From the NCBI GenBank assembly GCA_030433295.1, contig JAUIMJ010000041.1, forward strand, positions 1-21,585: a stretch of DNA of 21,585 nucleotides. The letters run 5' to 3'. The stretch is from a bacterium (lineage in GTDB: Bacteria; Bdellovibrionota_C; UBA2361; SZUA-149). Positions 875 to 17,983 of the stretch are shown piece by piece. A program made the position numbers and the translations under genes. The notes under the pieces are model-generated. The model saw only the letters and a program-made list of their open reading frames with translations, was not told where the DNA came from and made no database searches. The stretch's first letter is position 1, and each line of letters starts with the position of its first letter.

Positions 875-1037
875 CTCCCCCTGTTACTTACATAGATATA
901 AGTGTGCGTAATAACGTCACTATTCTGCAAAAGAACGACATATCCCCTCCTTGTCCAATGCCGCCTAAAAATGGTAGAAATCTAAGCGAAAAAGGTAGAG
1001 CAGCCACCAAGGATTGCTAATCAGACTGCGTCAAACG

Positions 1038-1063
1038 CCCTGGGAACGCACGACTTCCCAGGG
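1038..1063. promoter_or_regulatory. Perfect 9-bp inverted repeat (CCCTGGGAA-N8-TTCCCAGGG) in the gap between the SLT gene and the SPFH gene. Could be an operator or a Rho-independent-like stem without a U-tract.
   Basis: Read directly from sequence: left arm 1038-1046, right arm 1055-1063. Confidence 0.25.
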
Positions 1064-1111
1064 GTATAACGTTTGGCATGAGTGTAATGCATAAGCACAG
1101 AGAGCGTGAGC

Positions 1112-2122
1112 ATGGGACTTTGGGACACCGTAAAAGGGCAACTTCGTTCAGTAATAGAATGGGAGAACGCTCACCAGGAGAATCTGTTTGAACTCTGGAG
1201 TATCAACGGAGACGAGATTAAGGACGCCTCCAAGCTCATCGTAAAGCCCGGACAGGGGGTGCTGTTCCTGTATGAGGGGCAAATCGAGGCGGTTCACCTA
1301 GAAGAAGGTCTCTACGATCTCAGTACCGACAACGTCCCCTTCCTCACCACACTCTCTAAATACATGCAGGCCTTTGAGAGTGAGCATAAAGTCGGGATCT
1401 ATTTCTTCTGGCAGACAGAGTTCCTCAATCAGAAATGGGGCACCCCTACCCCGGTAAAATACGACGACCCCGTGTACAAATTTCCGGTGGCGTTACGAGC
1501 GCACGGGAACTTCAGCTTCCGCATCACGCGCCCTGAATCTTTTTTCGTGAATGTCGTTGGTTCGCGTCCGGTCTACACCCTGCAGGACGCCAAGCGAGTA
1601 ATTGTAGATCGTTTCCTCCAGCAGCTCACGGATCTCTTCGCCGAGCAGGGACTCAGCTATGCCGAGATCGACAAGAATCGAAACGAACTGGCACAGGCGC
1701 TCACCACCCACTGCGCAGCCGAATTTGAACCCCTTGGATTCGAACTCACTGACCTTCGAATTGAGGGCACCGATTTTGATGAAGAGACAAAAGCGCGTAT
1801 CGCCCGCATCGCGGATATGACTGCCGAGGCAGAGGCTGCCAAGCGAGCTGGACTGAACTACGCGCAACTTCAACAGCTTGAGGCAATGAGAGAGGCTGCG
1901 AGGAATGAAGGTGGGATGGCCAGTGCGGGTGTGGGACTGGGAGCAGGACTGGGCCTGGGTCAGGCGTTCGCTTCTGGTATGACCAATATGCAGGCGGGTG
2001 CACCGGCTGCCGCAGACGATCCCACCGCTCGACTACAGAAGTTGAAGTCCATGTTCGAGGCGGAACTCATCTCAAAGGAAGAGTACGACAAGAAGAAGGC
2101 TGAAATTCTTGCAGACCTTTAG
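1112..2122 (+). CDS. SPFH/Band-7 superfamily protein (Band_7_1 / YdjI-like) with a C-terminal SHOCT-like tail.
   Basis: N-terminus MGLWDTVKGQLRSVIEWEN...LIVKPGQGVLFLYEGQ is typical of the YdjI-type SPFH family. Gly/Ala-rich linker. C-terminal ARLQKLKSMFEAELISKEEYDKKKAEILADL matches the SHOCT pattern (L..LK.L.d.G.Is.eEYe.KK..iL). ATG at 1112 preferred over the GTG at 1106. Confidence 0.8.
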   Translation: MGLWDTVKGQLRSVIEWENAHQENLFELWSINGDEIKDASKLIVKPGQGVLFLYEGQIEAVHLEEGLYDLSTDNVPFLTTLSKYMQAFESEHKVGIYFFWQTEFLNQKWGTPTPVKYDDPVYKFPVALRAHGNFSFRITRPESFFVNVVGSRPVYTLQDAKRVIVDRFLQQLTDLFAEQGLSYAEIDKNRNELAQALTTHCAAEFEPLGFELTDLRIEGTDFDEETKARIARIADMTAEAEAAKRAGLNYAQLQQLEAMREAARNEGGMASAGVGLGAGLGLGQAFASGMTNMQAGAPAAADDPTARLQKLKSMFEAELISKEEYDKKKAEILADL

Positions 2123-2162
2123 AGCAGCTTGCAAGAACACAATCAGATAGGACTTTTCCACA

Positions 2163-2786
2163 ATGAGTGAATTTGCCTTCTCCTGCCCCTCGTGCGGTGC
2201 CACACTCGAAATAGAGAACAGATTTTCAAAAGTGGTCATGTGCGTCTATTGCGGACAATCGTCTGCGATAAGTCCTGCTGGCCTCGACCCCACAGGTGAA
2301 AAGGCACTCCTTGCCGACTCTCCGTCGATATTTTCCATCGGCGCAAGCGGAAGCATGGTACTGGCTTCAAAAGGAAGACTGTCGTTTAAGGTGCTTGGTA
2401 GACTACGGTATAAATACGATGGCGGCTTCTGGGATGAGTGGTTTCTGGAATTTACAGATGGACAAAAGCTCTGGCTTCAGGAGGATGAAGGCGAGTTCAC
2501 CGCTTTTGAAAAAGAAAGCCTTACTTCCCCTCTACCCCCATTCGAACAGATATCCGTTGGAAGCGTCATTCCGATAAATGGCTTATCCGTGTTTGTTACA
2601 GAGAAAAGCACCGCGGTAATTGCCGGTGGGCAAGGCGAACTTCTCTTTAAGACAACCCCAGGCATGAGCGCCAAGTGCGTAGATGGAAACGCAGGAGGTA
2701 AGCTCGTCAGTATTGAGCAGACCCCGGAAGAGATTTGCCTCTCCGTCGGAGAGGAAATTGATATTTCGTCTATACAATTTGCATGA
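2163..2786 (+). CDS. Zinc-ribbon protein with DUF4178-like core (YdjG/YdjH-like partner of the SPFH protein).
   Basis: N-terminal CxxC-x17-CxxC (FSCPSCGATLEIENRFSKVVMCVYCG). Core GRLRYKYDGGFWDEWFLEFTDGQKLWLQEDEGEF shares the W/D/E-rich pattern with the next ORF. 40-nt spacing after the SPFH gene. Confidence 0.65.
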   Translation: MSEFAFSCPSCGATLEIENRFSKVVMCVYCGQSSAISPAGLDPTGEKALLADSPSIFSIGASGSMVLASKGRLSFKVLGRLRYKYDGGFWDEWFLEFTDGQKLWLQEDEGEFTAFEKESLTSPLPPFEQISVGSVIPINGLSVFVTEKSTAVIAGGQGELLFKTTPGMSAKCVDGNAGGKLVSIEQTPEEICLSVGEEIDISSIQFA

Positions 2787-2830
2787 GCGCATGACTGGAA
2801 TCTGCGAACCGAGTAATTGAGAGCTTCGTT

Positions 2831-4348
2831 ATGAGCGATTCAGGGCCAGTCTCTGAAGAAAAGATTGCACAGGAAGTGCGCTCCATGATTGCGATGGGGC
2901 AGTTTGATAGAGCTCGCGTGCACGCAAAGCAGCTCGTAGCGGACCCCACTCTGCGTCAATCCGTTCTCGAAGAAATTGAAGCGGCGCAGAATCGAATGAA
3001 CGTCGGTTCAAGCAGTGCATCGGAAAGCTTCTCCGTAGAAACCCTTCAGTGCCCAAGTTGTCGGGGCTCCTTGTCACGCGCTATCAGTGAATCAGAAACA
3101 CTAACCTGCCCGGCCTGTGGCGCGGTGATTGACATCAGCAAACACCCTTTCTCTGTTCTCGATCAACAAAAACCAACGGCATACGCACCGGCGTCGTTCA
3201 TATCGCTGGGAATGCTCGGCACTTTTGAAAACGAAACGTATCAGGTGATTGGTCGGATCTGCTACTCCTCCTCGATGCAGGAATGGGATACAGAAGACAA
3301 TCAGTATTACCCCGAAACCTGGGTCTATGACACATGGATCCTCCTGGGAGAGAGCAAACGCTACCTCTACATTTCAGAGGATCGCGAGGGGTATAGCCTG
3401 GCAAAACCATTTACTCCGACCAGTCCTGCCCTTCCCGAAGGACAGTCTCAGCTTGCGCTGATGACTGACCACGTTCCACAGCGGGTTATCGAATACGGCA
3501 CAACCTCGGTAACCTACTTTGAGGGCGAATTTACCTGGCTACCCCGCGTAGGAGAGAAAGGAAAATTTGCAGAGTATCGGTACGGTGCTTACACATACAG
3601 CACTGAAGCCCGGTTGAAGAAAGGAGCTAAAGAAATAGCTGAAGTTGAGTTCTACGAAAGCCGCTCGATCAGCAAACTCGAATTAGCACGCGCTTTCGAT
3701 ATCAAGGAAATCATTCTGGAAGAGGCGGCCCTTGCTCGGAAAGAAGGAGAACTGAGAAGGTTGTCGTATCTTTCATACGCGGTCGGTGGAATCCTTACTC
3801 TTCTGTTTTTTGGCTCCTGTTCTGTTGGCAGTACGGCCGTAGCCTCGTATGAAGTTGACTTCACCAGACTTCCGGAGTCGGGACTGACAAAAGGCCCGAT
3901 AGAACTAAGCGAAGAGGGCTCGATCTACCAGCTCACGCTGAGTACGAGCATTCCGGACAATTCCTACTCCTGGGGCGCCATCGAGCTTCTCGACGAAAAG
4001 AAAGCGCCGATTAACGCATTCGAGGGGGATTTCTGGCGTGAATCAGGCTACGATTCGGACGGAAGGTGGTCCGAATCCTCAGTCAGCACAAGTCACCTCT
4101 TCAAACTTGAAACTCCGGGTACATACTATGTCCGTTTTTTCTCAGAAAAGGGAACCGCCAGTCGCGGGAAACTGCGCTTTGCTTTATCTGAGGGCATCAG
4201 TCTTTCCCGCTACTACTTTATCGGACTACTTGGGGCCTTCGGCTTCGGCTTTTCAATGAGAAAATATAAGTCGGCCAATCCCTTTTATATGCTGATCGGA
4301 ATTTTTGCCATCGCAGGAATAATCATTTCTTCTATGGGAGACGACTAA
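2831..4348 (+). CDS. Zinc-ribbon + DUF4178-like protein with C-terminal transmembrane helices (YdjH-like).
   Basis: LQCPSCRGS...TCPACGAV zinc ribbon. EWDTEDNQYYPETWVYDTWILLGESKRYLY core resembling the previous ORF. Hydrophobic segments AVGGILTLLFFGSCSV and GLLGAFGFGF...MLIGIFAIAGIIISS. 44 nt after the previous gene. Confidence 0.7.
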   Translation: MSDSGPVSEEKIAQEVRSMIAMGQFDRARVHAKQLVADPTLRQSVLEEIEAAQNRMNVGSSSASESFSVETLQCPSCRGSLSRAISESETLTCPACGAVIDISKHPFSVLDQQKPTAYAPASFISLGMLGTFENETYQVIGRICYSSSMQEWDTEDNQYYPETWVYDTWILLGESKRYLYISEDREGYSLAKPFTPTSPALPEGQSQLALMTDHVPQRVIEYGTTSVTYFEGEFTWLPRVGEKGKFAEYRYGAYTYSTEARLKKGAKEIAEVEFYESRSISKLELARAFDIKEIILEEAALARKEGELRRLSYLSYAVGGILTLLFFGSCSVGSTAVASYEVDFTRLPESGLTKGPIELSEEGSIYQLTLSTSIPDNSYSWGAIELLDEKKAPINAFEGDFWRESGYDSDGRWSESSVSTSHLFKLETPGTYYVRFFSEKGTASRGKLRFALSEGISLSRYYFIGLLGAFGFGFSMRKYKSANPFYMLIGIFAIAGIIISSMGDD

Positions 4349-4351
4349 GGG

Positions 4352-4591
4352 ATGAGTTTGTTTACCAAGCTTTTGGCGCTCATGACGATCTCATGCCTGC
4401 TGATTCTCCCCTATGCTGCCAGCCGAGGCGGATGGGGTATCGGGAGTGAAAAAAACCCGATCATTCTAAAGGGCGCCTCTGAATCATGCCCGGAATATCA
4501 ACGTTCTCTGAACGGAACATGCAGACGAAGAATTAGAAGTTACTACTACGGTCGAAGCTATGTCGGGGGGGGACCCCGCTATGGTAAGTAA
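4352..4591 (+). CDS. Small (79 aa) secreted/membrane peptide with signal-peptide-like N-terminus and a Gly/Tyr/Arg-rich C-terminal tail.
   Basis: Starts 3 nt after the upstream stop and ends 15 nt before the next gene. Hydrophobic N-terminus LLALMTISCLLILPYAASRG. Operon position is the main support. Confidence 0.4.
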   Translation: MSLFTKLLALMTISCLLILPYAASRGGWGIGSEKNPIILKGASESCPEYQRSLNGTCRRRIRSYYYGRSYVGGGPRYGK

Positions 4592-4606
4592 TGCAAGGAG
4601 AAACCC

Positions 4607-4927
4607 ATGAACACACGGAAGATTTATTCACTTCGCAAGGCTATCCACGTTGGGGCAGCCACTCTGAGCATGCTCGCGCTTCCGGCCTCTGCCATCGCTG
4701 AGGTTCCGCAGTTTACCGGACATCAGGTAGCTGATGGCGTTTTGGCCACGATTCTCTACAGTGCGATCGGAATAGTTATGGCGTTCATCGCCTATCGAGT
4801 TGTTGACCTTCTTACACCGGGAAATCTCGGTAAAGACATTGCCGACGGAAACACGGCTCTCGCTATCCTTGCGGGATTTAAAATACTTGGCGTTTGTATA
4901 ATTATCGCGGCCGCTATCGTCGGCTAA
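4607..4927 (+). CDS. DUF350 family small inner-membrane protein (E. coli YjfL-like).
   Basis: Strong SD (AAGGAGAAACCC-ATG). Two long hydrophobic helices and a conserved-looking ...DLLTPGNLGKDIADGNTALAI... segment typical of DUF350/YjfL. Confidence 0.75.
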   Translation: MNTRKIYSLRKAIHVGAATLSMLALPASAIAEVPQFTGHQVADGVLATILYSAIGIVMAFIAYRVVDLLTPGNLGKDIADGNTALAILAGFKILGVCIIIAAAIVG

Positions 4928-4996
4928 GGGCATCACCCTGAGGCTATTGGGCCAGCGTTTCCTGGTCCGCTTTTCGGGCCCGCCTTTTTGGGCCCA

Positions 4997-5134
4997 ATTT
5001 TCCGGGATACCACTTTTTCGCCACGGTGGTCTTGGCTTCCCGGGATACGTGCACAGGCGAATCTTAGAAAAAGTAGTTGATGTTTGTTTCCGCGCAGCCA
5101 GGCACGTAACAAACAGCGGTAGCTGCTTGCAGCT
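4997..5134 (+). promoter_or_regulatory. Repeat-rich putative promoter/operator region upstream of the membrane-fused spermidine synthase gene.
   Basis: 221-nt gap. Direct repeats CCGGGATAC (x2) and TTTTNGGGCCC (x2). Inverted repeat TGTTTGTT-N19-AACAAACA (5081-5115). Palindrome AGCTGCttGCAGCT (5121-5134). Followed by SD AGGTGA-N5-ATG. Confidence 0.3.
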
Positions 5135-5148
5135 CGCCAGGTGATGCA

Positions 5149-6720
5149 ATGAAAAACACTGGTGTCGATGATTCCGAGGCAGAATGGCCCGGTACTGAAG
5201 GCAGACCGTATCTGAGCAACAAGCAGGTGTGCATACTTGCCACCTCGATACTCATTACGTCGCTCTGCGCCCTTGTATATCAGTTACTGATAAGCAGCCT
5301 GTCTTCCTACCTTCTTGGTAGTAGTATACTTCATTTCTCCCTCACTATCGGCTTCTTCATGTTCTTCATGGGAGTCGGATCCTACGCCTCGAAGTATCTC
5401 GTCAAAAATCTCGTAGAGCAATTTATCCAGATTGAAATAGCGATAGGATTTGTTGGCGGCATTTCCGCTGCGCTTCTCTACACGAGCTTTAGTCTCAGTA
5501 AGTATTACTACATCAGCGCACTTCTTATCATAGCAATCATTAGCTGCCTCATAGGCCTGGAAATTCCTCTCGTCGCTCGTATCCTCAGAGCGCGCAGCGA
5601 ATTAAAAGATACACTCGCTAACATTCTCGCGGTTGACTATCTCGGTGCGCTCTTCGCCTCGATTATCTTTCCCTTGATTCTGGTCCCCTATCTTGGACTG
5701 ATGCGCACCGCCTTCATGATTGGCATCCTCAACACGGCCATCGCTCTGGTCACCCTGCGAGCATTTCTGCCTTATGTTGTCAGGGCAAAGAGATTATTAT
5801 TTCTGGGCATTGCGGTAATTTCACTGCTTAGCGTTGGTCTGGTGTTTTCCTTTCGCCTCATTGGCTATCTTGAAGGCTTTATTTATCAGGACCCAATAAT
5901 CTACTCGGCAGAGAGCAGCTACCAGCGCATAATCCTGACCAAGCATAAAAACGATATTCGTCTATTTCTCAATGGCAACATTCAGTTCAGTTCCATCGAT
6001 GAATATCGCTACCATGAACCCCTGGCACATATAATTCTTCCCAAATTGCCCTCTCGTGAACAGGTCCTGATTCTCGGAGGGGGTGATGGATTGCTCGCAC
6101 GTGAGGTTCTCAAGTACAAAGATGTGAAGACGGTGACAATCGTCGACATCGATAAACGCATGACAGACCTCGGGCAGAAAAACCCTATCTTCCAAAAGCT
6201 CAATGATTCATCGATGAACGACCCTCGGGTACGCATTGTTAATGAAGATGCCTTTGGCTTTATCCAGGAGTCCGTCGAGCGCTTCAATGCCGTTTTGATT
6301 GACCTGCCGGACCCCAATGACCTCGCAATAGGAAAGCTCTACAGCGTGGAATTTTATCAGGCGATAAAGAAGCGTCTTACGGCTGATGGTATGCTGATTA
6401 CCCAGGCATCATCACCGTTTTTTGCCCGTGCGGCATACTGGTGTGTTGCCAGCACGCTTGAAGAAGCCTTCGACCACGTCACCCCGCTTTGGGTCTATGT
6501 ACCCTCCTTCGGACCCTGGGGCTTTCACATCGCCTCTTCGGTTTCCTACTCTCTTCAGGATGGCGACATACCGGTTTCCACCCAGTATCTGACTCCTTCG
6601 GTGGTTCCCTCACTCTTTGTGTTTGATGCCGACAGCGAACGAGTTCCGACTGACGTCAATCGCCTCGATAACCAGAAGCTCGTCGAGTATTATGAGGCTG
6701 GCTGGAACGAGTGGAACTAG
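5149..6720 (+). CDS. speE: Polyamine aminopropyltransferase (spermidine/spermine synthase family) fused to an N-terminal ~7-helix membrane domain.
   Basis: C-terminal half has the canonical motifs LILGGGDGLLAREV ... VTIVDID ... VLIDLPDPND...LYSVEFYQ ... QASSPF. N-terminal 230 aa are almost entirely hydrophobic helices. Good SD. Confidence 0.85.
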   Translation: MKNTGVDDSEAEWPGTEGRPYLSNKQVCILATSILITSLCALVYQLLISSLSSYLLGSSILHFSLTIGFFMFFMGVGSYASKYLVKNLVEQFIQIEIAIGFVGGISAALLYTSFSLSKYYYISALLIIAIISCLIGLEIPLVARILRARSELKDTLANILAVDYLGALFASIIFPLILVPYLGLMRTAFMIGILNTAIALVTLRAFLPYVVRAKRLLFLGIAVISLLSVGLVFSFRLIGYLEGFIYQDPIIYSAESSYQRIILTKHKNDIRLFLNGNIQFSSIDEYRYHEPLAHIILPKLPSREQVLILGGGDGLLAREVLKYKDVKTVTIVDIDKRMTDLGQKNPIFQKLNDSSMNDPRVRIVNEDAFGFIQESVERFNAVLIDLPDPNDLAIGKLYSVEFYQAIKKRLTADGMLITQASSPFFARAAYWCVASTLEEAFDHVTPLWVYVPSFGPWGFHIASSVSYSLQDGDIPVSTQYLTPSVVPSLFVFDADSERVPTDVNRLDNQKLVEYYEAGWNEWN

Positions 6721-6851
6721 AGCAGTCTTCGGATAAAGATAGTACGATTTTATCCTACGACTGCTCTAGTTTTTCTTCTCCCGCACGGACAGACGTCCGT
6801 GCTCGAAAGCATTTTTCGCTGCGCTCTTAAAAAAATGCTGCGGAGCAGTCT
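6719..6851 (-). repeat. Inverted-orientation copy (~1.1 units) of the three-hairpin intergenic repeat family that is tandemly arrayed at 19004-19340. Starts on the TAG stop of the speE-like gene. Candidate terminator / REP-like element.
   Basis: The reverse complement of 6719-6851 aligns with ...AGCATTTTTc..GAAAAATGCT...GCACGGAC-N4-GTCCGTGC...AGAGCAGTCGYAGGATAAA-N10-TTTATCCGAAGACTGCTCT of the 19-kb array. Confidence 0.7.
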
Positions 6852-7047: not shown

Positions 7048-8343
7048 ATGACTTTGCGCATTCTTTGCTCTGGGGATATTCACCTGGGCCGCCTTCCGAC
7101 GCGCGTACCCTGGGATTCCTTGCATGATGAAAACCAGAAGTATTCCCTTACGCAGGAAGCAGCGCTTGAACGCCTTGTGCAACATGCTATCAGCGAAAAG
7201 GTCCATGCGGTCATGCTCAGCGGTGACATCATCGATCAGGCAAATGCGTACTTCGAGGGCGTGGCTGCTCTGGAGTCCCAACTCCGAAAGCTTGAAGCAG
7301 CCGGGATACCGGTATATGCCGTAGCCGGAAATCATGACTGGAAAATACTCTCCGACTTTGCCGACAATGTTGCGGGATGTACCCTCCTGGGAAGAGACGG
7401 CACCTGGGAGTCGCGCGAGCTAGTACACGAGGGCAACACTCTTGCGTACCTGCATGGTCGCTCGTTCACCGAACGTTTTTTCTATGGCGACCCCACTGAG
7501 GGACTTGTCGTTACGAGGAACGATATCCCAAATATCGTTCTGCTCCACGCCGACGTTGGTGCACCAGCAGACTCTTCCTATGCACCCGTTTCGCTACAAC
7601 GCTTGAAACAATACAATGATTGTAGCTGGCTGCTCGGACACATACACAAACCACAAGTGCTGAGCGAGGACCCCCTGATTTTCTATCCGGGATCTCTTCT
7701 TCCCCTCGATCCGGGGGAAACCGGCTCTCATGGCGCGAGCCTCCTCACATTTCCCGACGGACAGACGCCTCGTCACAGGCATCTGCCCCTTGCATCCCTT
7801 CGCTACGAGAGTATTGAAATCGATCTGGGAGGCGCCGAGGAAGGGGAATCACTGGATCCGGTAGTTCACAAAACTATAAAAACCTGGATTGAAGAGAACA
7901 GGACGGACCTGCAGGGGACAGAACGAGTACTTGCACGACTGCAATTGACCGGAAGAGTTCCCTCACTCCATGAGATCGAACAATATCGCATTGAACTAAG
8001 TGAGCGTCGGGAAATCCACATCGATACGCTTGCATTCACCATTGACTCGATTGTCAATCGATGTGAGCTGAAGATCCCTCTCGAGGAGCTTTCCGAATCG
8101 CAAACGCCACCCGGATTACTTGCTCAGAAAATTCTGATACTTAAGCACAGGCAGCCAACAGATGCCTATGGAGCCCTGCTTTCTTCAGGCAAAAAGCGGG
8201 TCCAGCGAGAAATCGAACGTTCTCACGGGGCAGCAGTGGATCTTCGACCCTGGGAAGACGAAGAAACCGTGCGCGAGCTTCTCCTCGAAAGCAGTTTTCT
8301 GCTTCTCGATGCATTCCTCCGGCAGAAGGAGGAGACGGCATGA
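7048..8343 (+). CDS. SbcD/Mre11-like calcineurin-type metallophosphoesterase (DNA repair exonuclease family; B. subtilis YhaO-like).
   Basis: Phosphoesterase motifs in order: GDIHLG, LSGDIID, GNHD, LLHAD, LGHIHKP. Stop overlaps the start of the next gene (ATGA). Confidence 0.8.
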   Translation: MTLRILCSGDIHLGRLPTRVPWDSLHDENQKYSLTQEAALERLVQHAISEKVHAVMLSGDIIDQANAYFEGVAALESQLRKLEAAGIPVYAVAGNHDWKILSDFADNVAGCTLLGRDGTWESRELVHEGNTLAYLHGRSFTERFFYGDPTEGLVVTRNDIPNIVLLHADVGAPADSSYAPVSLQRLKQYNDCSWLLGHIHKPQVLSEDPLIFYPGSLLPLDPGETGSHGASLLTFPDGQTPRHRHLPLASLRYESIEIDLGGAEEGESLDPVVHKTIKTWIEENRTDLQGTERVLARLQLTGRVPSLHEIEQYRIELSERREIHIDTLAFTIDSIVNRCELKIPLEELSESQTPPGLLAQKILILKHRQPTDAYGALLSSGKKRVQREIERSHGAAVDLRPWEDEETVRELLLESSFLLLDAFLRQKEETA

Positions 8344-11300
8344 AACTTCTCGACCTCTCTATTGTACGCATGCCGGGGATCGAGCGGCCGATACGCATAC
8401 AGTCCCTTGACGACACATTCAACATAATCCTCGGTGCAAACGCCTCTGGGAAATCGAGCATGTGCCGTGCCGCCCAGGCTCTGCTCTGGGTCAATGCAAT
8501 ACCGAAAGACTCCTATTGGGAGGTGCATAGTCATTGGAGCCAAAAGAACCCCAGTATCTCCGGCCAGACCGAAGACTCTGATGAACGGGCAAACATTGAG
8601 ATCCGTATCAAAGGACAGGAACACCAGGTGCTCCAGTTTGGCACAGAGCGCGAAGCACTTAACGTGCCCTCTGAAGCCCTCCGGGCGTGCTATCTGATTA
8701 CCCTCGAGGATCTTTTTGTATCTGACGGCTCTGATCTTGCTGCGATGATGGCTAATGAAATGGCCGGTGGATTCAACATACACGCTGTTAAGGATAAACC
8801 GCCCGTTCGAGCAAAACGCGTCCACCACGAGTCAAAACAACTAAAACTCGCGCAATCGAACTTCAGAAAAATTGATGCGCAGCAAAAATCACTGAAGCAG
8901 AGCGAGGTCAAACTCGCCCAGCTCAAGGACGACATAGAAAAGTTGCAGGCCAAAGCAAACCTGAAGGACAGTATACAACAAGCGATTGAGCTATACCGCT
9001 TAACCCAGGAAGACGAGGTTCGCACACAGCGACTCTCCAGCTTCCCCAAAGGACTTGAGAGTCTGTATGGCAATGAGCTTTCTGAACTCGATGAACTGCA
9101 GCAAGAGCTAAAGAGGCTTGAGAAAAACGCGCTTGATTACGAGCGACAAATAGAGGAAGCAAAGCTCCAGATCGCGGAACAATCTCTTCCCGAGGATGGG
9201 GTTTCTGACTCAGAAATGGAGGTTCTGCGAACCCTCATCTCGAGCCTGTCCCCCGTTGACCACGCGGTTACGCAACAAAAACAGAAGATACGAAAATGCG
9301 AACAGGCTCTTTCCATTGATGCTCTGGCAGACTCCGCTGACCTGCTGAATGGTCAGGATCCTCGCCCCGAACTCCTGCAAAGACTTTCCGCCCAGGCCTA
9401 CGCCCTGGAAGAAGCCAGTAGTAGAGAAGCACGACTCAGTGCCGAGTTTTCCTTGCTCGAGCGGCGCCTTGATGCGAATCCCCTTGGTGATTTTTCGAGC
9501 ACTGACTACGAGAATGCCCTGAACCTGCTCAACGAGGTGATTGAACAGCATCAGGAGCTCATCAGGAACAGAATCTCCACCGTCACCGTGATTTCTTTCT
9601 TGCTCTTGTGTGTGCTGGCTCTTGCCGGCGGCCATTTCGTTCATCCAGTATTGTACGGGATGGCTGCACTCGGCCTAATAAGCCTCACGCCAGTATGGCA
9701 GGCCATGCGAGGAGCGAGAATAAAACTCGCTGCATGTGAAGAGGCATGTTTGCAGAACTCATTACTGGCAGGGCGTACGGACATCAATGTCGATGAGCCT
9801 GAAACGCTCCGAAACTCTGTCGCGACGCTGAGCACTGAGAAAGCAAAACTTTTAGTAATCGAAGAGCGCAGACAAGGCGAAGAACAACAGTATCAGGTTC
9901 TTGAGCACGAATTCGCAGAAGCGAAGAAATTGACGGCCGGGATTCGCCGTGAGTGCTCCGCTCTCCTTGCGGATCTCGGAGTGCAGTCCGCAGAAGATAG
10001 CTTTTCAATCTCGTTCCTTTCCCGAGACCTGAACCAGCATGCTGAGCGGACCGCGGAACTGCGTGAGGCAGTTTCTTCCTATCGGGCTCGCCTCACTGAG
10101 CGTGAGGAGATCCTTGAGCGAATATCTGTCGTTCTGAAGCCCTTCGGCTATGCCGCTTGTCTCACGACAGAGGAAGCACAGGCTCACGGAAACGCTCTAC
10201 AGAAAAGACGCGACCTTCAGCAAAAGGCTGTTGAACTGCGCAGCAGGGCTCTCAGCGGCCAGAATGAGACAAAGCGTGCTCAGGAGCGATTGGCGAGCAA
10301 GTTTGAGGAACTGTATCGACGGGCAAATTTACCCTCCGGTGCGCGCAGTGAGTTGGAATCCCGCATGAACATGCTTCAGGAATTCAGGGAAACAAAAAAC
10401 GAGGAGGCCGCCGCGCGGGGCACTATACAACATCTTACTGAAAAACTTCGCAGGGAAACTCCGGAACTACTGGAACGCTCACTTCTCGACCTCGACCGTA
10501 ATGCAGTCGAGGCGGAGGCAGCGCTGACTGAGTATCATGAACTTCGTGATGAAGTAGTTAGAATTGAAACGGCGATTGCGGCCACGCGATCCGAACGCTC
10601 ACTGGAAGTGGCGGCCGAAAGTGTTCGGGCCGCAGAAGAACAGCTCAGAGAAGCAGCCCTTGAGAACGCCAAATCTGAACTCTGCTCGCTGCTTCTCGAA
10701 GACATTCAGGCTGAGCACCTGCAAAAGAACCGACCTGAAGTATTTACCAGAAGTTCCCAACTGTTTTCGCAGTTCACCCACGCTCGATATACACTCTCCG
10801 ACATAGCGCCGGACAAACATGGTGCCAGCTTTCGGGTATTCGACGCTCAACAGGGTACGTCCCTGGAACTCTCGCAGCTCTCCTCGGGAACCAAAGCGCA
10901 GATCCTGCTCGCGTGTAAGGTTGCCTTCGCCCAGTCGGCAGAGCGCGGGGATCCAATTCCGCTGTTTTTCGATGAGGCGCTGTCCACCAGTGATCCGCTT
11001 CGCTTCCAGGCCGTTATTGACGCGCTATGCTCCCTCGCTCGTGGCGGCAGGCAGATTCTCTACTTTACCTCTCAACCCAAAGACACACAGGTCATCGCTG
11101 ATCTCTGCGAAAAACAGTCATGTTCGGTAGCGCTTCATACCATCTCTAAGGATATGGAGAGAACGGATGCATCGCTGCTCATCTCGAGCCCACTGTTTGC
11201 GTCTGTTCCTGAGCCGGGTGGCCTGTCGTACGAAGAATATGTGAGAGAACTCAATATCGAACCTCTATCACTCTCCAAAGGCAGTGCCGCAATTCACCTG

Positions 11301-11846
11301 GCGCATCTCACCGATGATAAAGAATTACTGCATTCCTTACTCGAAATGCACATTCAGACATTCGGGCAATTAAAAACGTTGTATGAAAGCGACAGCGGTT
11401 CTGTCTATGTCCCTGATGCGGCATATACTCGCTTGGCTGCTCGGCATCGATTGATCAGCGCCTCATTTGAGCAATGGAAGATTGGTCGCGGGGAGCCGCT
11501 GACCCCGGAAATTATTCAGGAGGCCCTGCCCAAAACGAAGCATCGCGAGAGCATTCTCGATATCTGGAGAGAAACCAGAGACACTATTCGCTTCCTCGAT
11601 GCGATCGATCCCAACAAAGGGAAAGCAGTCTCCAGGTTCAAGGTCTCGCAGTTTGAACAGTTGAAAGATGCTCTGGTCGAACGAGGAAACTTCAGTGAAA
11701 CTCCCCCGCTTTCCGAAGAGGAGTTCCACCGCAACGTTCTGGGTGAAGTGTCAGCAGAGGTTGAAGCAGGCGCACTCAGCACATCTGAGGCGGCTAAAAT
11801 GTCACACGCGCTCTGGGAGCAACTTTCAAACGCCACACTGTATTAG
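8340..11846 (+). CDS. SbcC/Rad50-like ABC-type ATPase with very long coiled coil (B. subtilis YhaN-like). A predicted transmembrane hairpin sits mid-coiled-coil.
   Basis: Walker A GANASGKSS at N-terminus. ~700 aa of heptad-like, charged, Leu/Glu/Arg/Gln-rich sequence. Hydrophobic pair VTVISFLLLCVLALAGGHFV / LYGMAALGLISLTPVW at ~aa 410-457. C-terminal signature LSQLSSGTKAQ and Walker B PLFFDEALS. SD AAGGAGGA upstream; 4-nt overlap with the SbcD-like gene. Confidence 0.8.
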   Translation: MKLLDLSIVRMPGIERPIRIQSLDDTFNIILGANASGKSSMCRAAQALLWVNAIPKDSYWEVHSHWSQKNPSISGQTEDSDERANIEIRIKGQEHQVLQFGTEREALNVPSEALRACYLITLEDLFVSDGSDLAAMMANEMAGGFNIHAVKDKPPVRAKRVHHESKQLKLAQSNFRKIDAQQKSLKQSEVKLAQLKDDIEKLQAKANLKDSIQQAIELYRLTQEDEVRTQRLSSFPKGLESLYGNELSELDELQQELKRLEKNALDYERQIEEAKLQIAEQSLPEDGVSDSEMEVLRTLISSLSPVDHAVTQQKQKIRKCEQALSIDALADSADLLNGQDPRPELLQRLSAQAYALEEASSREARLSAEFSLLERRLDANPLGDFSSTDYENALNLLNEVIEQHQELIRNRISTVTVISFLLLCVLALAGGHFVHPVLYGMAALGLISLTPVWQAMRGARIKLAACEEACLQNSLLAGRTDINVDEPETLRNSVATLSTEKAKLLVIEERRQGEEQQYQVLEHEFAEAKKLTAGIRRECSALLADLGVQSAEDSFSISFLSRDLNQHAERTAELREAVSSYRARLTEREEILERISVVLKPFGYAACLTTEEAQAHGNALQKRRDLQQKAVELRSRALSGQNETKRAQERLASKFEELYRRANLPSGARSELESRMNMLQEFRETKNEEAAARGTIQHLTEKLRRETPELLERSLLDLDRNAVEAEAALTEYHELRDEVVRIETAIAATRSERSLEVAAESVRAAEEQLREAALENAKSELCSLLLEDIQAEHLQKNRPEVFTRSSQLFSQFTHARYTLSDIAPDKHGASFRVFDAQQGTSLELSQLSSGTKAQILLACKVAFAQSAERGDPIPLFFDEALSTSDPLRFQAVIDALCSLARGGRQILYFTSQPKDTQVIADLCEKQSCSVALHTISKDMERTDASLLISSPLFASVPEPGGLSYEEYVRELNIEPLSLSKGSAAIHLAHLTDDKELLHSLLEMHIQTFGQLKTLYESDSGSVYVPDAAYTRLAARHRLISASFEQWKIGRGEPLTPEIIQEALPKTKHRESILDIWRETRDTIRFLDAIDPNKGKAVSRFKVSQFEQLKDALVERGNFSETPPLSEEEFHRNVLGEVSAEVEAGALSTSEAAKMSHALWEQLSNATLY

Positions 11847-12423: not shown

Positions 12424-12957
12424 CTAGGCACGAGGAAACAGGCGCGCATGCCATGATTCAGAAAATGGACGGGCAAAGTCACCCAATCTATCGGTGGTAT
12501 CAACGGTGGTATCAAAAACGGTTATATCCGGCGAGAACTCATCCGATTTCACGTAGCTCGCAAAATCTGCTCTGTTCATCTGCTCGACCTCAGCCCCACG
12601 CAAAAAGAATATATCGGAAAGGTCGGCCATCTCATTCCCCCCTGCCGAGAGTTCCTGCCGAACTGCCCCAAACAGAGAGTCTATGGAACAACCGGAGACC
12701 GCTGCCGATTGTTTATCAGCTCCGACCAACACAAAACGTCCATACGCCACCTCGAGCGCCCCTGAAACCGCAGCGCCATGAGCCTCCCAGCCCGCAAGAA
12801 ACGAAGAAAGCCGTGAACTGAGCTCGGCACAACGCGGGTCCGATTTCGACAATGAGGCTCGTAAGGGAAACACCCATAGACGAGAGCCTGGGGCGAGAGT
12901 GGCAAGGCCGGGAAAGGAAGCTCCGGCGTCCTTAGCGGAAATTTCTACATGATCCAT
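12424..12957 (-). CDS. Hypothetical protein (177 aa), family not recognised. Immediately downstream of the AdoMetDC-spermidine synthase fusion on the same strand.
   Basis: Intact ORF with protein-like composition, same strand as and ~100 nt after the speH-speE fusion. No motif I can name with confidence. Confidence 0.45.
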   Translation of the reverse strand: MDHVEISAKDAGASFPGLATLAPGSRLWVFPLRASLSKSDPRCAELSSRLSSFLAGWEAHGAAVSGALEVAYGRFVLVGADKQSAAVSGCSIDSLFGAVRQELSAGGNEMADLSDIFFLRGAEVEQMNRADFASYVKSDEFSPDITVFDTTVDTTDRLGDFARPFSESWHARLFPRA

Positions 12958-13061: not shown

Positions 13062-14141
13062 CTATCCTTTCCGAGCGCTGATAAATCGCCATCGACCAAA
13101 AGCAGATGGTAAATATACCAGTTTTGATCGTATATCAGAAAAATGTGCTGTAATCATTTCCTCAAGCAAGTCGTTGGTGACGCGATCGAACTCTGAACAA
13201 CATTGCAGCACAATCACTCCGCCGTCCGCTAATGACTCAGAAATCCTGTGGAACATCTCGCGAAGATACGTCTCACGGGGCACCTGAGTAAAAGCCTCCG
13301 GATGCATACTAAGGTCGACCACAACGCAGGAATACTCTCCTGGCGAAACGCGAGCCAAAAAGGCCACCACATCGTCATACGTAAGCTTGACTCGAGAATC
13401 ACTAAAGGCGTCACCGCAATGTTCCGGCAGGTATTGCTGGCTCAGAGACACGACCCCCTCATCAATTTCAACCAAGGTTATTGATGCGGGATCATGCTCC
13501 AGCAAGGTCTTCAGAACACCGCCATCCCCACCTCCTAGCAACAAAACATTGGCAAGGTCAGCAGATCGTTCATTGAGCATTTCAAGCATTACCTGACTGT
13601 AACGCTCGGCATCCAGTTCTGCGACCTGCAAATCATCATCCAACACCAGCATTCGACCAAAACGAGTGCTGTCTGCGATACATACTCGCTGGAATGCGGT
13701 AGCGCCGTTATAAATGGTTTTCTCTATCGGCACCCGATGATCCACGCCCTCAGCAGAACTCAGACAGATACTATCTGTTCGCTGAACATCCAGAACATCG
13801 CCTCGTTGAATCAAAGCCCTTCTCACATGGGCGGGAGCAAGGTACGTTACAAAGTGATCGACAATACTCCGTGATTTTTCGGGCTCAGGCGAGCAGGTAA
13901 ATATATCCACGGAAGCATGGGCTGCCTCGGGATACGTGTGAATAACAACGTGAGATTCGCTGATTATCCCCAGAACCGTCAGCCCATGAGGCTCATACGA
14001 ATGGGAGTGAAGGGAGATAAGGCCGAAGCCGGCGCTCTCTATCCCCCTGCGCAAAATCTCGAGCATCCCATCGGCATCACCCAACATTCCCGCAGCACAT
14101 CCCTCAAGTTCTGCCAGAATTTGACTGCCTGCCGGTTTCAT
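13062..14141 (-). CDS. speH-speE: Fusion protein: pyruvoyl-dependent S-adenosylmethionine decarboxylase proenzyme (SpeH/SpeD class 1b, N-terminal ~125 aa) + spermidine synthase-family aminopropyltransferase (C-terminal).
   Basis: N-terminus LAELEGC...LISLHSHSYEPHGLTVLGIISESHVVIHTYPEAAHASVDIFTC closely matches Bacillus-type SpeH, including the ES self-cleavage site. C-terminus has LLLGGGDGGVLKTLLEH...ITLVEIDEGVV...VVVDLS... aminopropyltransferase motifs. Confidence 0.85.
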   Translation of the reverse strand: MKPAGSQILAELEGCAAGMLGDADGMLEILRRGIESAGFGLISLHSHSYEPHGLTVLGIISESHVVIHTYPEAAHASVDIFTCSPEPEKSRSIVDHFVTYLAPAHVRRALIQRGDVLDVQRTDSICLSSAEGVDHRVPIEKTIYNGATAFQRVCIADSTRFGRMLVLDDDLQVAELDAERYSQVMLEMLNERSADLANVLLLGGGDGGVLKTLLEHDPASITLVEIDEGVVSLSQQYLPEHCGDAFSDSRVKLTYDDVVAFLARVSPGEYSCVVVDLSMHPEAFTQVPRETYLREMFHRISESLADGGVIVLQCCSEFDRVTNDLLEEMITAHFSDIRSKLVYLPSAFGRWRFISARKG

Positions 14142-14471
14142 TTCGCATTCTCAGGTTTACTAGGGCCCCGCGTATACTTGCTTCGGCCAGAGGACATAAC
14201 ACGGACCGAGGAAAGATCCATGCCCAAAACTTAGATAAACTACACGGTTATTCCTGCCGACGCTACCGCTAAGCCCAGCTTTTACGGTTGCTGCCCCTGG
14301 CACAAACCTGTACCATTACCGTAGTTTATCAGACATCTGTGACCACCCGCGTGGATGATGCTTTGGAAGCCTGCCCATCGACTGGCTTAAAGCCCGGGCG
14401 GATGCTGTGTAATTCGCCGCTTTTGGAGTGCTCGAAACTTGGCGCAAAACAGAACAAGTGACAGAACGACC

Positions 14472-16229: not shown

Positions 16230-16260
16230 GCGCGCTGCGTTCAGTGCCTGAGAAGCGCGC
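16230..16260. terminator. GC-rich hairpin (GCGCGCT-N17-AGCGCGC) between convergent genes (secreted protein on +, lgt on -). Possible bidirectional terminator, but no U-tract.
   Basis: Inverted repeat read from sequence. Overlaps the lgt stop codon. Confidence 0.3.
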
Positions 16261-17596: not shown

Positions 17597-17846
17597 CCCC
17601 CTGCGCGATACGCGCTATCTATCATTGAAACATACTCACCAGACTTCGTTAGCAGGAGTACGAGCTTTTTCAAATAAAAGCGAGGGATGGGTGAATGTTG
17701 ATATAGCCAATACACCTGAGAAGTACGTGGGTTATGAGAATTAGTCGTTGAGCACAAAGCCCCCTATACACACACCAAATTGCCCAACAATGGAGCGGTT
17801 AAGCCTTCGCAACTCGAGCTATTCTATAGCATTTCAAAATTTCCCT

Positions 17847-17863
17847 AGCATTTCAGAAATGCT
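17847..17863. promoter_or_regulatory. Perfect 17-bp palindrome AGCATTTCaGAAATGCT in the tlpA / lpxL divergent promoter region (preceded by a TAGCATTTCA direct repeat).
   Basis: Read directly from sequence. Confidence 0.3.
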
Positions 17864-17947
17864 CTATTTAACCTATACATTAGCCCCGAACTCGGGAAGG
17901 GCCCCTGCCCTACACGTAACCTACTATTTTACTAATATAGACTGATT

Positions 17948-17983
17948 TACTGGCACAGACTGAACTACTGGCACAGAGTGAAC
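17948..17983 (+). promoter_or_regulatory. Tandem 18-bp direct repeat TACTGGCACAGA(C/G)TGAAC x2, ending on/overlapping the GTG start of the LpxL-family gene.
   Basis: Read directly from sequence: 17948-17965 and 17966-17983 differ at one position. Confidence 0.3.

Follow-up and report, generated by a model that had tools for sequence, protein, structure and literature searches.

A PspA-free, SPFH-SHOCT-containing operon around a predicted membrane-embedded aminopropyltransferase

Introduction

Operons combining a seven-transmembrane (7TM) spermine synthase protein with DUF350, DUF4178 and a small lipoprotein have been described as a conserved group exemplified by Shewanella oneidensis SO_3765 (Ravi et al. 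2024, PMC11237479, supplement). This 7TM-SpeE neighborhood is usually joined to CesT-PspA, and replacement of PspA by a Band-7 plus SHOCT protein has been described for a sister operon type (PMC11237479). E. coli yjf belongs to an ATP-grasp group, whereas the 7TM-SpeE/DUF350/DUF4178/lipoprotein operon forms a separate group, and B. subtilis YdjH is a TPM-phosphatase-domain protein (PMC11237479). Here we analyzed a 21,585-nucleotide stretch of bacterial DNA (the window) containing a six-gene operon that shares the core of the described PspA-linked operon and carries an SPFH-SHOCT gene in the place of PspA. An initial annotation had read this locus as a recombination of ydjGHI with yjfIJKLMC in which an aminopropyltransferase replaces the polyamine-conjugating YjfC. 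The window does share a YdjI-type Band_7_1 protein with ydjGHI, but YdjH is not the DUF4178 protein it was taken for and the 7TM-SpeE/DUF350/DUF4178 set already constitutes its own operon group; because the groups are separate, the aminopropyltransferase is no replacement of YjfC. The annotation's statement that the gene set lacks experimental characterization holds in the literature we searched, where no experimental study was found and a single work mentions DUF4178.

Results

Inspection of open reading frames recovered all six genes (g1–g6) at the positions first reported, co-directional on the plus strand with spacers of 40, 44, 3, 15 and 221 nt. A 231-nt non-coding gap after an SLT gene (875..1105) is the presumed promoter region, although a simple scan of this interval found no sigma-70-like site. 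The order SPFH, DUF4178, DUF4178-TM, mini-protein, DUF350 and SpeE recurs in related loci L001, L002/3/7, L004/5, L006 and L010 with unrelated flanks, bearing out the proposed linkage, and g3 identity to the window falls from 81% in L001 to 49% in L002/3/7 and 37% in L004/5. Since the flanking genes differ in L002 and L004, the block appears to begin at the 875..1105 region. Downstream, a terminator-like hairpin over the g6 stop codon (6716..6785, followed by UUUUUCUUCU) has a predicted folding energy of −25.9 kcal/mol (z −5.25; 0 of 200 shuffles equally stable) and likely marks the 3′ end of the operon. Judged from sequence, the conserved gene order within unrelated flanks and this strong hairpin identify the six genes as one real, conserved operon. 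The 221-nt g5–g6 spacer (4928..5148) contains a weak hairpin and T-run at 4964–4990 that a scan scored as terminator-like, and g6 could thus be driven by its own promoter; the spacer hairpin folds no better than shuffles (z −1.2), the spacer sequence is not kept in L001, the 78–81% identical relative, and the spacer has no match in Rfam.

Profile searches with Pfam and NCBIfam models recovered each of the SPFH, SHOCT, DUF4178, DUF350 and aminopropyltransferase domains originally called. Gene g1 (1106..2122) encodes an SPFH (Band_7_1, 2.7e-39) and SHOCT (3.7e-6) protein; at 26.9 bits the SHOCT match falls just short of the cut-off of 27, and PF09851 is present in the precomputed Pfam list for the protein. 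The annotated ATG at 1112 corrects the open reading frame start at 1106 and yields 336 aa. The protein combines a hydrophobic Gly-zipper stretch (NEGGMASAGVGLGAGLGLGQ) with an Ala/Pro linker and, at the C-terminus, two SHOCT helices; its C-terminal pattern is kept in relatives, and g1 is predicted to be a membrane scaffold on the cytoplasmic face. The g1 family comprises 2198 proteins from many phyla at E ≤ 1e-10, and SPFH-SHOCT members also occur without any SpeE, beside Tim44 plus zinc-ribbon, PLD or unknown proteins; the tie of this family to the TM-SpeE enzyme is facultative.

The next two genes are paralogous (BLASTP 5e-6). Gene g2 (2163..2786) encodes a soluble 207-aa zinc-ribbon and DUF4178 protein (DUF4178 1.1e-8; zinc-ribbon matches weak), and g3 (2831..4348) encodes a membrane-spanning protein whose DUF4178 match (1.7e-4) lies under the cut-off. 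Read from its N-terminus, g3 begins with a helical region and continues with a CxxC...CxxC ribbon, DUF4178 and a first TM helix; a beta-sandwich and, at the C-terminus, a pair of TM helices follow. The membrane anchoring originally assigned to g3 stands, but the structure prediction (pLDDT 88) indicates more than a simple anchor, with three TM helices and a 120-aa beta-sandwich (residues 335–454) bearing the conserved motif FWRESGYDSDGRWSE; the helical region, ribbon and DUF4178 are predicted to be cytoplasmic and the beta-sandwich periplasmic. Several g3 homologs carry PF13785. DUF4178 pairs of ~205 aa and ~450–500 aa lie upstream of TM-SpeE in 18 loci, and the shorter gene directly follows the SPFH gene in L001–L007 and L010. 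In Myxococcota and Dechloromonas, DUF4178 proteins of 630–700 aa consist of two ZnR-DUF4178 repeats and by domain content are the fused equivalent of g2 plus g3.

Gene g4 (4352..4591) encodes a mini-protein of 79 aa, predicted to be exported or anchored at its N-terminus. The N-terminus is hydrophobic, and the protein has a GWGxGxE(K/R)N motif, a conserved pair of Cys and a basic Gly/Tyr/Arg/Ser-rich tail ending in an invariant Gly-Lys. Conservation in L001, L002 and L004, where gene callers missed the open reading frame, indicates that g4 is a real gene. All 32 small relatives found among 1.84 billion representative proteins end in GK, and in ~40 loci from several phyla TM-SpeE is preceded by related mini-ORFs that likewise end in Gly-Lys. 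A lipobox-like Cys is present in several mini-proteins, and the subfamily of the window has the two conserved Cys. Gene g5 (4607..4927) encodes a small YjfL-family membrane protein (DUF350 9.8e-14, profile positions 3–66 of 133) with a signal-like N-terminus and a single 2-TM DUF350 unit.

Gene g6 (5149..6720) encodes a 7-TM polyamine aminopropyltransferase that matches family PRK03612 over its full length (NF002956, 1.1e-174) and Pfam Spermine_synth at 1.4e-38. The fusion of membrane and enzyme domains is not unusual, since NCBI curates it as a family and at least 7995 relatives exist. An AlphaFold2 model (pLDDT 91.3, pTM 0.80) contains seven TM helices, with a TM domain at residues 24–245 and a catalytic domain at residues 250–523; the closest solved structures are soluble aminopropyltransferases that match the catalytic domain only. 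Conserved features include GGGDG (D313), D333/D335, D367, D385-L-P-D388-P and Y288-H-E, and the catalytic motifs are invariant in 45 homologs. The TM domain is also highly conserved and includes the intramembrane acidic residues E96, E138 and D163. An acid in GxG(D/E)G marks users of decarboxylated SAM (dcSAM) (PMC10349129), and from its retention in g6 and from linked AdoMetDC genes we infer that g6 uses dcSAM. The two aspartates that line the acceptor site in classical spermidine synthases (D385 and D388) are both retained, which leaves room for a free diamine or polyamine as acceptor. A fungal 7TM plus SpdS-like enzyme acts on secreted proteins (PMC10349129).

A likely source of dcSAM lies 6.3 kb from the operon, where a minus-strand gene (13062..14141) encodes a soluble 359-aa fusion of AdoMetDC (SpeD; AdoMet_dc 2.4e-24) and aminopropyltransferase (Spermine_synt_N; Spermine_synth 2.7e-26). 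In L007, the fusion gene (38% identity) and a 172–177-aa partner gene keep their synteny close to the operon, and in L004 a stand-alone AdoMet_dc gene directly follows TM-SpeE. AdoMetDC-aminopropyltransferase fusions make spermidine and spermine (PMC11107197). A passage of PMC12803844 citing Li et al. 2019 states that bacterial homologs of a membrane/APT-like fusion are not involved in Spd/Spm synthesis; the 'MFS-SpdSyn' fusion of Li et al. 2019 is presumed to be the PRK03612 family, and g6 scores only 40.7 bits on the NCBIfam model MFS_SpdSyn.

Loop charges and the signals of neighboring proteins were used to orient the enzyme. Across 61 TM-SpeE homologs, mean K+R counts for the N-terminus and then loops 1–2 to 6–7 are 3.15/0.00/2.25/0.05/3.20/0.11/2.66. 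By the positive-inside rule, this pattern and seven helices predict an N-in/C-out topology, and the g6 catalytic domain would therefore face the periplasm. Amine oxidases of sister operons carry a twin-arginine motif in 25 of 25 distinct proteins and a lipobox-like Cys in 21 to 24 of the 25, and by these signals are Tat lipoproteins. An exported aminopropyltransferase would need dcSAM outside the cytoplasm, and we know of no precedent for this.

A survey of 86 TM-SpeE loci from many phyla identified DUF350 in 59, in each adjoining TM-SpeE, DUF4178 in 57, amine oxidase in 27, AdoMetDC in 20, and Band_7_1 and PspA in 15 each; profile matches confirmed partner-cluster representatives as PspA_IM30, CesT_Tir_1, DnaJ and Amino_oxidase. 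About 25 of the 86 loci (Dechloromonas/Azonexus) have no partner gene nearby. Band_7_1 and PspA never occurred within one operon among these loci, and SPFH-SHOCT in the window occupies the position of CesT-PspA in homologous operons. No PspA gene was found in the 21.6-kb window, as initially reported; in L007 a PspA gene lies ~8 kb beyond the operon. This comparison of gene content shows a conserved core of the g4–g5–g6 trio and zinc-ribbon/DUF4178 proteins, and a scaffold module that swaps between lineages, being Band_7_1-SHOCT in this operon and CesT-PspA(-DnaJ) in others. Further lineages have AdoMetDC together with an amine oxidase, the latter sometimes alongside a scaffold module.

Discussion

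The locus is probably best read as a PspA-free, SPFH-scaffolded envelope operon around a membrane-embedded aminopropyltransferase. In this model dcSAM would be the donor for g6, and the N-in/C-out arrangement would place the g6 catalytic domain and the g4 tail on the periplasmic side. The conserved TM domain, with its intramembrane acidic residues, would probably bring in a cationic substrate, for example dcSAM. Protein g3 would cross the membrane and join its periplasmic beta-sandwich to the cytoplasmic ZnR-DUF4178 module, which with the soluble paralog g2 and the SPFH-SHOCT scaffold g1 may organize the complex, or regulate it, on the cytoplasmic side. Most likely the system carries out dcSAM-dependent aminopropylation of an acceptor amine on the outer side of the inner membrane, and the role would be envelope maintenance or stress rather than housekeeping spermidine synthesis.

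We regard as unlikely the initial interpretation of a stress module that recombines ydjGHI with yjf and synthesizes or modifies free polyamines at the cytoplasmic membrane face. Recovery of all domains, intact catalytic residues including both acceptor aspartates, and the occurrence of YdjI-type Band_7_1 and YjfL-type DUF350 in PspA-linked operons (PMC11237479) agree with it. The TPM identity of YdjH and the separate, known DUF4178/DUF350/7TM-SpeE/lipoprotein operon group argue against the recombination, and local polyamine synthesis is made doubtful by the loop charges that put the catalytic domain on the non-cytoplasmic side, the Tat-lipoprotein amine oxidases of sister operons, the soluble fusion in the window, and the passage in PMC12803844 reporting homologs without a Spd/Spm role. 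The initial interpretation is partly supported.

Less probable still is that g6 is the plain membrane-anchored spermidine synthase of the cell, with neighbors that are unrelated or serve only polyamine export. The NCBI name 'polyamine aminopropyltransferase' and the canonical catalytic motifs would suit such an enzyme, but across phyla the enzyme gene stays linked to genes for DUF350, DUF4178 and the mini-protein, the window encodes a separate soluble fusion of a type that makes both polyamines (PMC11107197), the TM domain with its acidic residues is highly conserved, and the cited passage (PMC12803844) places bacterial homologs outside Spd/Spm synthesis. An anti-phage defense system, in which the SPFH protein and enzyme act beside an SbcCD-like nuclease/ATPase pair, is highly improbable: g6 matches PADLOC mad2 (8.1e-17) through the methyltransferase fold only and a 1168-aa neighbor weakly matches mad3, AriA and LmuB, but g1–g5 have no PADLOC matches, g6 is a full-length PRK03612 member, and L002 and L004 keep the operon while lacking the SbcCD-like pair.

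The preferred reading of an SPFH-scaffolded envelope operon adds to the described systems a topology predicted from loop charges, the Tat-lipoprotein amine oxidases, the Gly-Lys ending of the mini-protein and the nearby AdoMetDC fusion. The operon is a PspA-free, SPFH-scaffolded variant of a widespread, uncharacterized envelope system, in which a membrane-scaffold protein is linked with an enzyme of the polyamine type embedded in the membrane and with a very small exported protein.

Results

The six + strand genes of the operon (window 1106–6720) encode an SPFH-SHOCT protein (g1), two zinc-ribbon/DUF4178 proteins (g2 and g3), a mini-protein (g4), a DUF350 protein (g5) and a membrane-fused polyamine aminopropyltransferase (TM-SpeE, g6). 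They lie where the initial annotation had placed them, with spacers of 40, 44, 3, 15 and 221 nt, and Pfam and NCBIfam profile searches recovered every domain it had predicted. Relatives at 81%, 49% and 37% g3 identity preserve the six-gene linkage in the same order, namely SPFH-SHOCT, DUF4178 (~205 aa), a g3-like protein, a "gap" of 260–350 nt, DUF350 and Spermine_synth, and the gap of each relative contains an uncalled g4 homolog. The closest relative alone has the flanking genes of the window (an SLT gene upstream, an SbcCD-like pair downstream). An AdoMet_dc gene follows SpeE in locus L004, and in locus L002 a helicase-PLD gene is inserted ahead of SpeE. This inserted gene (L002 10050–13223, also in L003 and L007), placed between DUF350 and TM-SpeE, encodes a 1,057-aa protein with AAA_11/AAA_12 helicase and PLDc_2 domains and belongs to one Bdellovibrionales lineage. 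Directly 3′ of g6, RNA folding against shuffled sequences identified a hairpin with a U-run (−25.9 kcal/mol, z −5.25); in a sigma-70 scan the region ahead of g1 gave no promoter, and sites overall were no more numerous than in shuffles. A riboswitch or attenuator in the 221-nt g5–g6 spacer is unsupported, since an Rfam search of the window, this spacer included, returned no RNA family, the spacer sequence is not conserved in the closest relative and its hairpin is no more stable than those of shuffles. A 173-aa antisense ORF across g5 and the g5–g6 spacer (4628–5149, − strand) was regarded as fortuitous, given that it runs antiparallel to the conserved g5.

We scanned a TM-SpeE protein alignment against one genome per species and obtained 80 loci from many phyla, which together with five contig loci of g3 homologs and the window gave 86 loci; all ORFs were searched with HMMs built for this analysis, the AdoMetDC model from domain-only seeds. 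DUF350 occurs in 59 of the 86 loci and DUF4178 in 57, followed by amine oxidase (27), AdoMetDC (20), Band_7_1 (15), PspA (15) and CesT (9). Band_7_1 and PspA never occur in one operon. The window-type layout of SPFH, two DUF4178 genes, mini-protein, DUF350 and SpeE, with SPFH absent or downstream in some cases, is found in Bdellovibrionales-like, Pseudomonadota, Granulosicoccaceae, Microscillaceae and Anaerolineales loci. A PspA-type layout in Gastranaerophilales-like loci runs (DnaJ-)CesT-PspA, DUF4178, 8-TM DUF350, DUF4178, mini-lipoprotein, SpeE, and Latescibacteria and Vicinamibacteria carry DnaJ-CesT-PspA, amine oxidase, SpeE, DUF4178 and DUF350. Myxococcota, Hymenobacter and Elusimicrobia share DUF4178, mini-protein (in most), DUF350, SpeE and amine oxidase, preceded by AdoMetDC in Myxococcota and Hymenobacter. 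About 25 SpeE loci of Dechloromonas/Azonexus (within L019–L068) have no adjacent DUF350, DUF4178, mini-protein or other partners; they have other, unannotated conserved neighbors in common, and L020 and L038 carry an SPFH-SHOCT gene and a gene for a 643-aa double-DUF4178 protein ~6–7 kb upstream of TM-SpeE.

The leading gene g1 (1106–2122, +; annotated start at ATG 1112) matches Band_7_1 (PF13421) at 135.4 bits (E 2.7e-39, gathering cut-off 24) over profile positions 8–209 of 211. Its C-terminal tail is conserved in homologs, and residues 309–335 score 26.9 bits (E 3.7e-6) against SHOCT (PF09851, cut-off 27), a domain in the precomputed Pfam list for the g1 protein (P0141) and for most of 120 homologs. 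The SPFH-SHOCT family (2,198 proteins at E ≤ 1e-10) is not tied to SpeE and elsewhere adjoins Tim44 plus double-zinc-ribbon proteins, a PLD enzyme or unknown proteins. For close g1 homologs in Chlorobiaceae and another genome, the DUF4178 partners are replaced by 644–662-aa Tim44-like proteins with a double zinc ribbon (L086 8017–9951 and L089 5000–6988), pairs that may represent a general dyad of SPFH-SHOCT and a zinc-ribbon partner. In some gammaproteobacterial loci a Band_7_1 gene lies downstream of TM-SpeE (L042 10719–12029, L056 12941–14041, L084 2068–3285), and its product ends in GYF_2 and a proline-rich tail, not SHOCT.

Both following genes encode zinc-ribbon proteins. The product of g2 (2163–2786, +) scores 35.8 bits against DUF4178 (PF13785; E 1.1e-8, cut-off 25). 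That of g3 (2831–4348, +) combines an invariant CxxC...CxxC ribbon with a DUF4178 match under the cut-off (22.2 bits, E 1.7e-4); it is a paralog of g2 (BLASTP E 5e-6 across ribbon and DUF4178), and PF13785 is carried by its homologs P0005, P0008 and P0009. Homologs of g3 are rare, with 20 matches, one of them from a Bdellovibrionales MAG; MAGs of this order are the nearest relatives of the window. The AlphaFold2 model of g3 (pLDDT 88) is arranged as a helical N-terminus, the ribbon, a beta-rich DUF4178 domain, a TM helix, a beta-sandwich at residues 335–454 in which an acidic motif, FWRESGYDSDGRWSE, is conserved, and finally a C-terminal pair of TM helices. DUF4178 proteins of 630–700 aa contain two ribbon–DUF4178 repeats, which makes g2 and g3 a conserved doublet. 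Within the literature library searched, DUF4178 appears in no work besides Ravi et al. 2024.

The mini-protein gene g4 (4352–4591, +) is a real gene encoding 79 aa; its product has no Pfam match, and neither has the PspA-type mini-protein. A search among 1.84 billion cluster representatives defined a window subfamily of 32 small relatives (77–83 aa) with a hydrophobic N-terminus, a GWGxGxE(K/R)N motif, two conserved Cys residues and a basic tail rich in Gly, Tyr, Arg and Ser, ending in Gly-Lys in 32 of 32. More distant mini-ORFs of 50–85 aa immediately precede DUF350 or SpeE, in the same orientation, in ~40 loci from several phyla, PspA-type and Myxococcota operons among them, and end in Gly-Lys or, rarely, His-Lys or Ala-Lys. 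Several have a lipobox-like Cys, and PspA-type loci include lipobox-bearing relatives of the mini-protein. At most loci examined here, gene callers missed the genes for these 50–85-aa proteins. The distant mini-ORFs are probably counterparts of the "LipoSIG + Ctha_1186 + low-complexity" protein of the Shewanella operon. The adjoining g5 (4607–4927, +) encodes one 2-TM DUF350 unit, matching DUF350/YjfL (PF03994) at 52 bits (E 9.8e-14, cut-off 26) over half the profile (positions 3–66 of 133).

The last gene, g6 (5149–6720, +), encodes a Spermine_synth domain (E 1.4e-38) and matches PRK03612 over its full length (E 1.1e-174), with residues 23–522 aligned to positions 15–521 of 522 of the profile NF002956 ("polyamine aminopropyltransferase") at 581.8 bits against a cut-off of 472. 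The NCBIfam model MFS_SpdSyn gave 40.7 bits only. This 7TM family is very large, with at least 7,995 relatives at E ≤ 1e-30 (all but 5 of 8,000 scored), and its members, from many phyla, are everywhere annotated as polyamine synthases. An AlphaFold2 model (pLDDT 91, pTM 0.80) contains seven TM helices followed by the catalytic domain. Users of decarboxylated S-adenosylmethionine (dcSAM) were recognized by two sequence features, one of them the D-x-x-D-P acceptor/catalytic motif known from spermidine synthase structures. The other is the acidic residue in GxG(D/E)G, which separates dcSAM users from SAM users (PMC10349129). The corresponding residues of g6, G310-G-G-D313-G and D385-L-P-D388-P, show no variation in sets of 4 and of 45 homologs, and D333/D335 and D367 are also kept in all 45 aligned homologs. 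By sequence, g6 thus has the signature of dcSAM-dependent aminopropyltransferases, and aminopropyl transfer itself is predicted. The TM domain is conserved as strongly as the catalytic domain and includes the intramembrane acids E96, E138 and D163, which suggest a passage for a cationic substrate, for example dcSAM.

Topology prediction places the catalytic domain of g6 on the periplasmic side. Across 61 homologs, mean K+R counts alternate from 3.15 at the N-terminus to 0.00, 2.25, 0.05, 3.20, 0.11 and 2.66 in loops 1-2, 2-3, 3-4, 4-5, 5-6 and 6-7, and this alternation together with seven helices leads us to infer an N-in/C-out orientation. Independent support comes from amine oxidases with predicted Tat export, from the export signals and Cys pair of the mini-proteins and from the fungal enzyme NHMT, which has the same architecture and modifies secreted proteins. 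A twin-arginine motif begins all 25 distinct amine oxidases that adjoin TM-SpeE in sister operons, and 21 to 24 of the 25 have a lipobox-like Cys; these predicted Tat-exported lipoproteins imply that amine oxidation is periplasmic. The Tat flavin amine oxidases occur in loci L032–L080 (for example L050 10551–12194 and L044 7332–8984) of Myxococcota, Hymenobacter, Latescibacteria, Elusimicrobia and Vicinamibacteria.

The window also contains a gene (13062–14141, −) for a 359-aa protein in which AdoMet_dc, Spermine_synt_N and Spermine_synth are fused; this gene is syntenic with the operon in relatives. AdoMetDC–aminopropyltransferase fusions are functional polyamine synthases (PMC11107197). In the window fusion the sequence VVDLSMHPE stands where classical enzymes have D-x-x-D-P, so that another residue apparently takes the place of the second acceptor aspartate. 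Synteny in L007 extends to the fusion and a 172–177-aa unknown protein (window 12424–12957), and the latter also recurs in L001–L003.

Discussion

The system to which this operon belongs is already known from comparative genomics, and the present locus is distinguished by SPFH-SHOCT in place of CesT-PspA and by a DUF4178 pair split over two genes, one of them for a trans-membrane protein. The initial annotation had presented the operon as a recombination of B. subtilis pspA-ydjGHI and E. coli yjfIJKLMC and had assigned DUF4178 to YdjH; both points are wrong in light of Ravi et al. 2024, who describe the core operon and a Band-7 variant and identify B. subtilis YdjH as a TPM-domain protein (PMC11237479). 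What the window operon has in common with pspA-ydjGHI is a Band_7_1 SPFH protein beside zinc-ribbon proteins in an envelope-stress context. The B. subtilis operon has PspA, the TPM-domain YdjH and a ZnR/NTF2-like YdjG and lacks DUF4178, DUF350 and an aminopropyltransferase, whereas the window operon has no TPM or PspA match and shares only Band_7_1 and the zinc ribbons. E. coli yjfIJKLMC likewise places DUF350 (YjfL) in a polyamine-linked PspA-family operon, but of its components, which include the DUF2170/CesT-like YjfI, PspA-like YjfJ, DUF2491, DUF1190 and the ATP-grasp GSP-synthetase-like YjfC, DUF350 alone is found in the window operon.

The closest described relative is the "second group" operon of Ravi et al., exemplified by Shewanella oneidensis SO_3765/SO_3766, which contains PspA-CesT/Tir, a 7TM-spermine synthase, YjfL/DUF350, a Ctha_1186 lipoprotein and DUF4178 (PMC11237479); we recovered this type in Gastranaerophilales-like loci. 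Both operons combine a 7TM + Spermine_synth enzyme with DUF350, DUF4178 and a small protein that bears a signal and has a low-complexity tail, and both have the local order mini-protein, DUF350, SpeE. In the window operon, however, the CesT-PspA dyad is absent and Band_7_1-SHOCT leads instead; two separate ZnR-DUF4178 genes are present, one membrane-spanning with a predicted periplasmic beta-sandwich; the DUF350 protein has a signal-like N-terminus and is of a short 2-TM type rather than the 8-TM one; and the mini-protein has no consistent lipobox. A "third group" variant offers a precedent for the exchange, with the CesT-PspA dyad replaced by Band-7 + 2TM + SHOCT in an ATP-grasp/polyamine operon, the sister operon to which the E. 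coli yjf type corresponds (PMC11237479). It resembles the window operon in that, in a polyamine-linked, DUF350-containing setting, CesT-PspA gives way to an SPFH protein that has a hydrophobic segment and a C-terminal SHOCT, but it carries a glutathionylspermidine-synthetase-like ATP-grasp ligase, AdoMetDC and polyamine oxidase where the window operon has the 7TM aminopropyltransferase and DUF4178 proteins. The earlier statement that PspA is missing proved correct for all 21.6 kb of the window: eight non-operon ORFs searched with Pfam gave no PspA_IM30 match, and no window ORF was matched by a PspA HMM for which confirmed genes from sister loci had served as the source. An SPFH protein standing in for PspA is consistent with published comparative genomics (PMC11237479). 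"PspA-less" describes the operon and not necessarily the genome, since in L007 a 211-aa PspA homolog (17761–18396) is encoded ~4.5 kb beyond the SpeD-SpeE fusion and ~8 kb past the SPFH-type operon.

Membrane-fused enzymes of this kind have two further points of comparison. Fungal NHMT (A. nidulans AN4663; Batth et al. 2023) joins seven TM helices to a spermidine-synthase-like domain, requires its TM domain for activity, modifies secreted proteins in a periplasm-equivalent compartment and, with Ile at the acidic position of GxG(D/E)G, uses SAM (PMC10349129). It is likened to g6 by its 7TM + SpdS-like architecture, and its site of action fits the predicted N-in/C-out orientation; g6 differs in having Asp (D313) rather than Ile and in its linkage to AdoMetDC, so aminopropyl rather than methyl transfer is expected. 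Bacterial fusions of a membrane protein to a spermidine-synthase-like domain, reportedly linked to AdoMetDC and DUF350, were described by Li et al. 2019, who are said to have called the membrane part MFS-like. They resemble g6 in combining a membrane domain with an aminopropyltransferase-like domain and in this AdoMetDC and DUF350 linkage; although g6 is of the 7TM PRK03612 type, with its low MFS_SpdSyn score, the two are probably one family. Citing Li et al. 2019, Michael and colleagues (PMC12803844) state that bacterial homologs of the fungal membrane/APT-like fusion were found experimentally to have no part in Spd/Spm synthesis.

From sequence, predicted structure and gene neighborhood, on which all functional statements about the operon are based, the operon most likely serves to aminopropylate an acceptor on the outer side of the inner membrane, in a reaction coupled to a membrane scaffold. 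The acceptor could be a polyamine in free form, an amine of a lipid or of the cell wall, or the lysine that ends the mini-protein. The beta-sandwich of g3, predicted to be periplasmic, would be joined to a cytoplasmic ribbon-DUF4178 module, with g2 and the SPFH-SHOCT scaffold as putative cytoplasmic-face partners.

A bolder reading, which we consider unlikely, is that 7TM-SpeE is not a polyamine synthase but an extracytoplasmic dcSAM-dependent aminopropyltransferase of a macromolecular amine, with the mini-protein lysine as the most economical acceptor. The aminobutyl side chain of lysine is similar to putrescine, and its modification would leave a spermidine-like group tethered to a protein on the outer side of the inner membrane. 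In this scheme dcSAM would cross the membrane by way of the 7TM domain, the Tat-exported amine oxidases of sister operons would process the product, and SPFH or PspA scaffolds would tie the reaction to membrane state. Braun's lipoprotein Lpp is likewise a very small envelope protein with an invariant C-terminal lysine that is needed for function; its epsilon-amine is joined to peptidoglycan. Lpp is a coiled coil and shares no sequence similarity with g4, which has a Cys loop and a Gly/Tyr/Arg tail and, unlike Lpp, is always encoded beside an aminopropyltransferase. Against the lysine as acceptor, g6 keeps the second acceptor aspartate, D388, which in D-x-x-D-P normally binds a distal positive amine that a peptide lysine does not have. 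If true, this reading would make 7TM-SpeE a bacterial counterpart of NHMT and would explain the absence of spermidine synthesis by these enzymes.

An anti-phage defense system is not indicated, with no meaningful PADLOC match for the operon (none for g1–g5, and for g6 only a mad2 methyltransferase-fold region). Downstream, overlapping + strand genes encode an SbcD/Mre11-like phosphoesterase (7048–8343) and a 1,168-aa SMC/ABC-type ATPase (8340–11846) with weak PADLOC similarity to mad3, AriA and LmuB ATPases; L001 and L006 also have this pair after the operon, whereas L002 and L004 do not. Further envelope genes in the window encode an SLT-domain transglycosylase (23–874, +), a TSP3-repeat protein (14439–15212, +), prolipoprotein diacylglyceryl transferase (Lgt; 16260–17036, −) and a lipid A biosynthesis acyltransferase (17978–19006, +).

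For the family as a whole, the conserved partners of the 7TM enzyme are DUF350, zinc-ribbon/DUF4178 proteins and an overlooked Gly-Lys-ended mini-protein. The membrane-scaffold part is interchangeable between PspA-CesT and SPFH-SHOCT, which suggests a membrane-integrity context, and the predicted outside-facing catalytic domain together with the predicted Tat-lipoprotein amine oxidases makes the periplasm the likely site of the chemistry.
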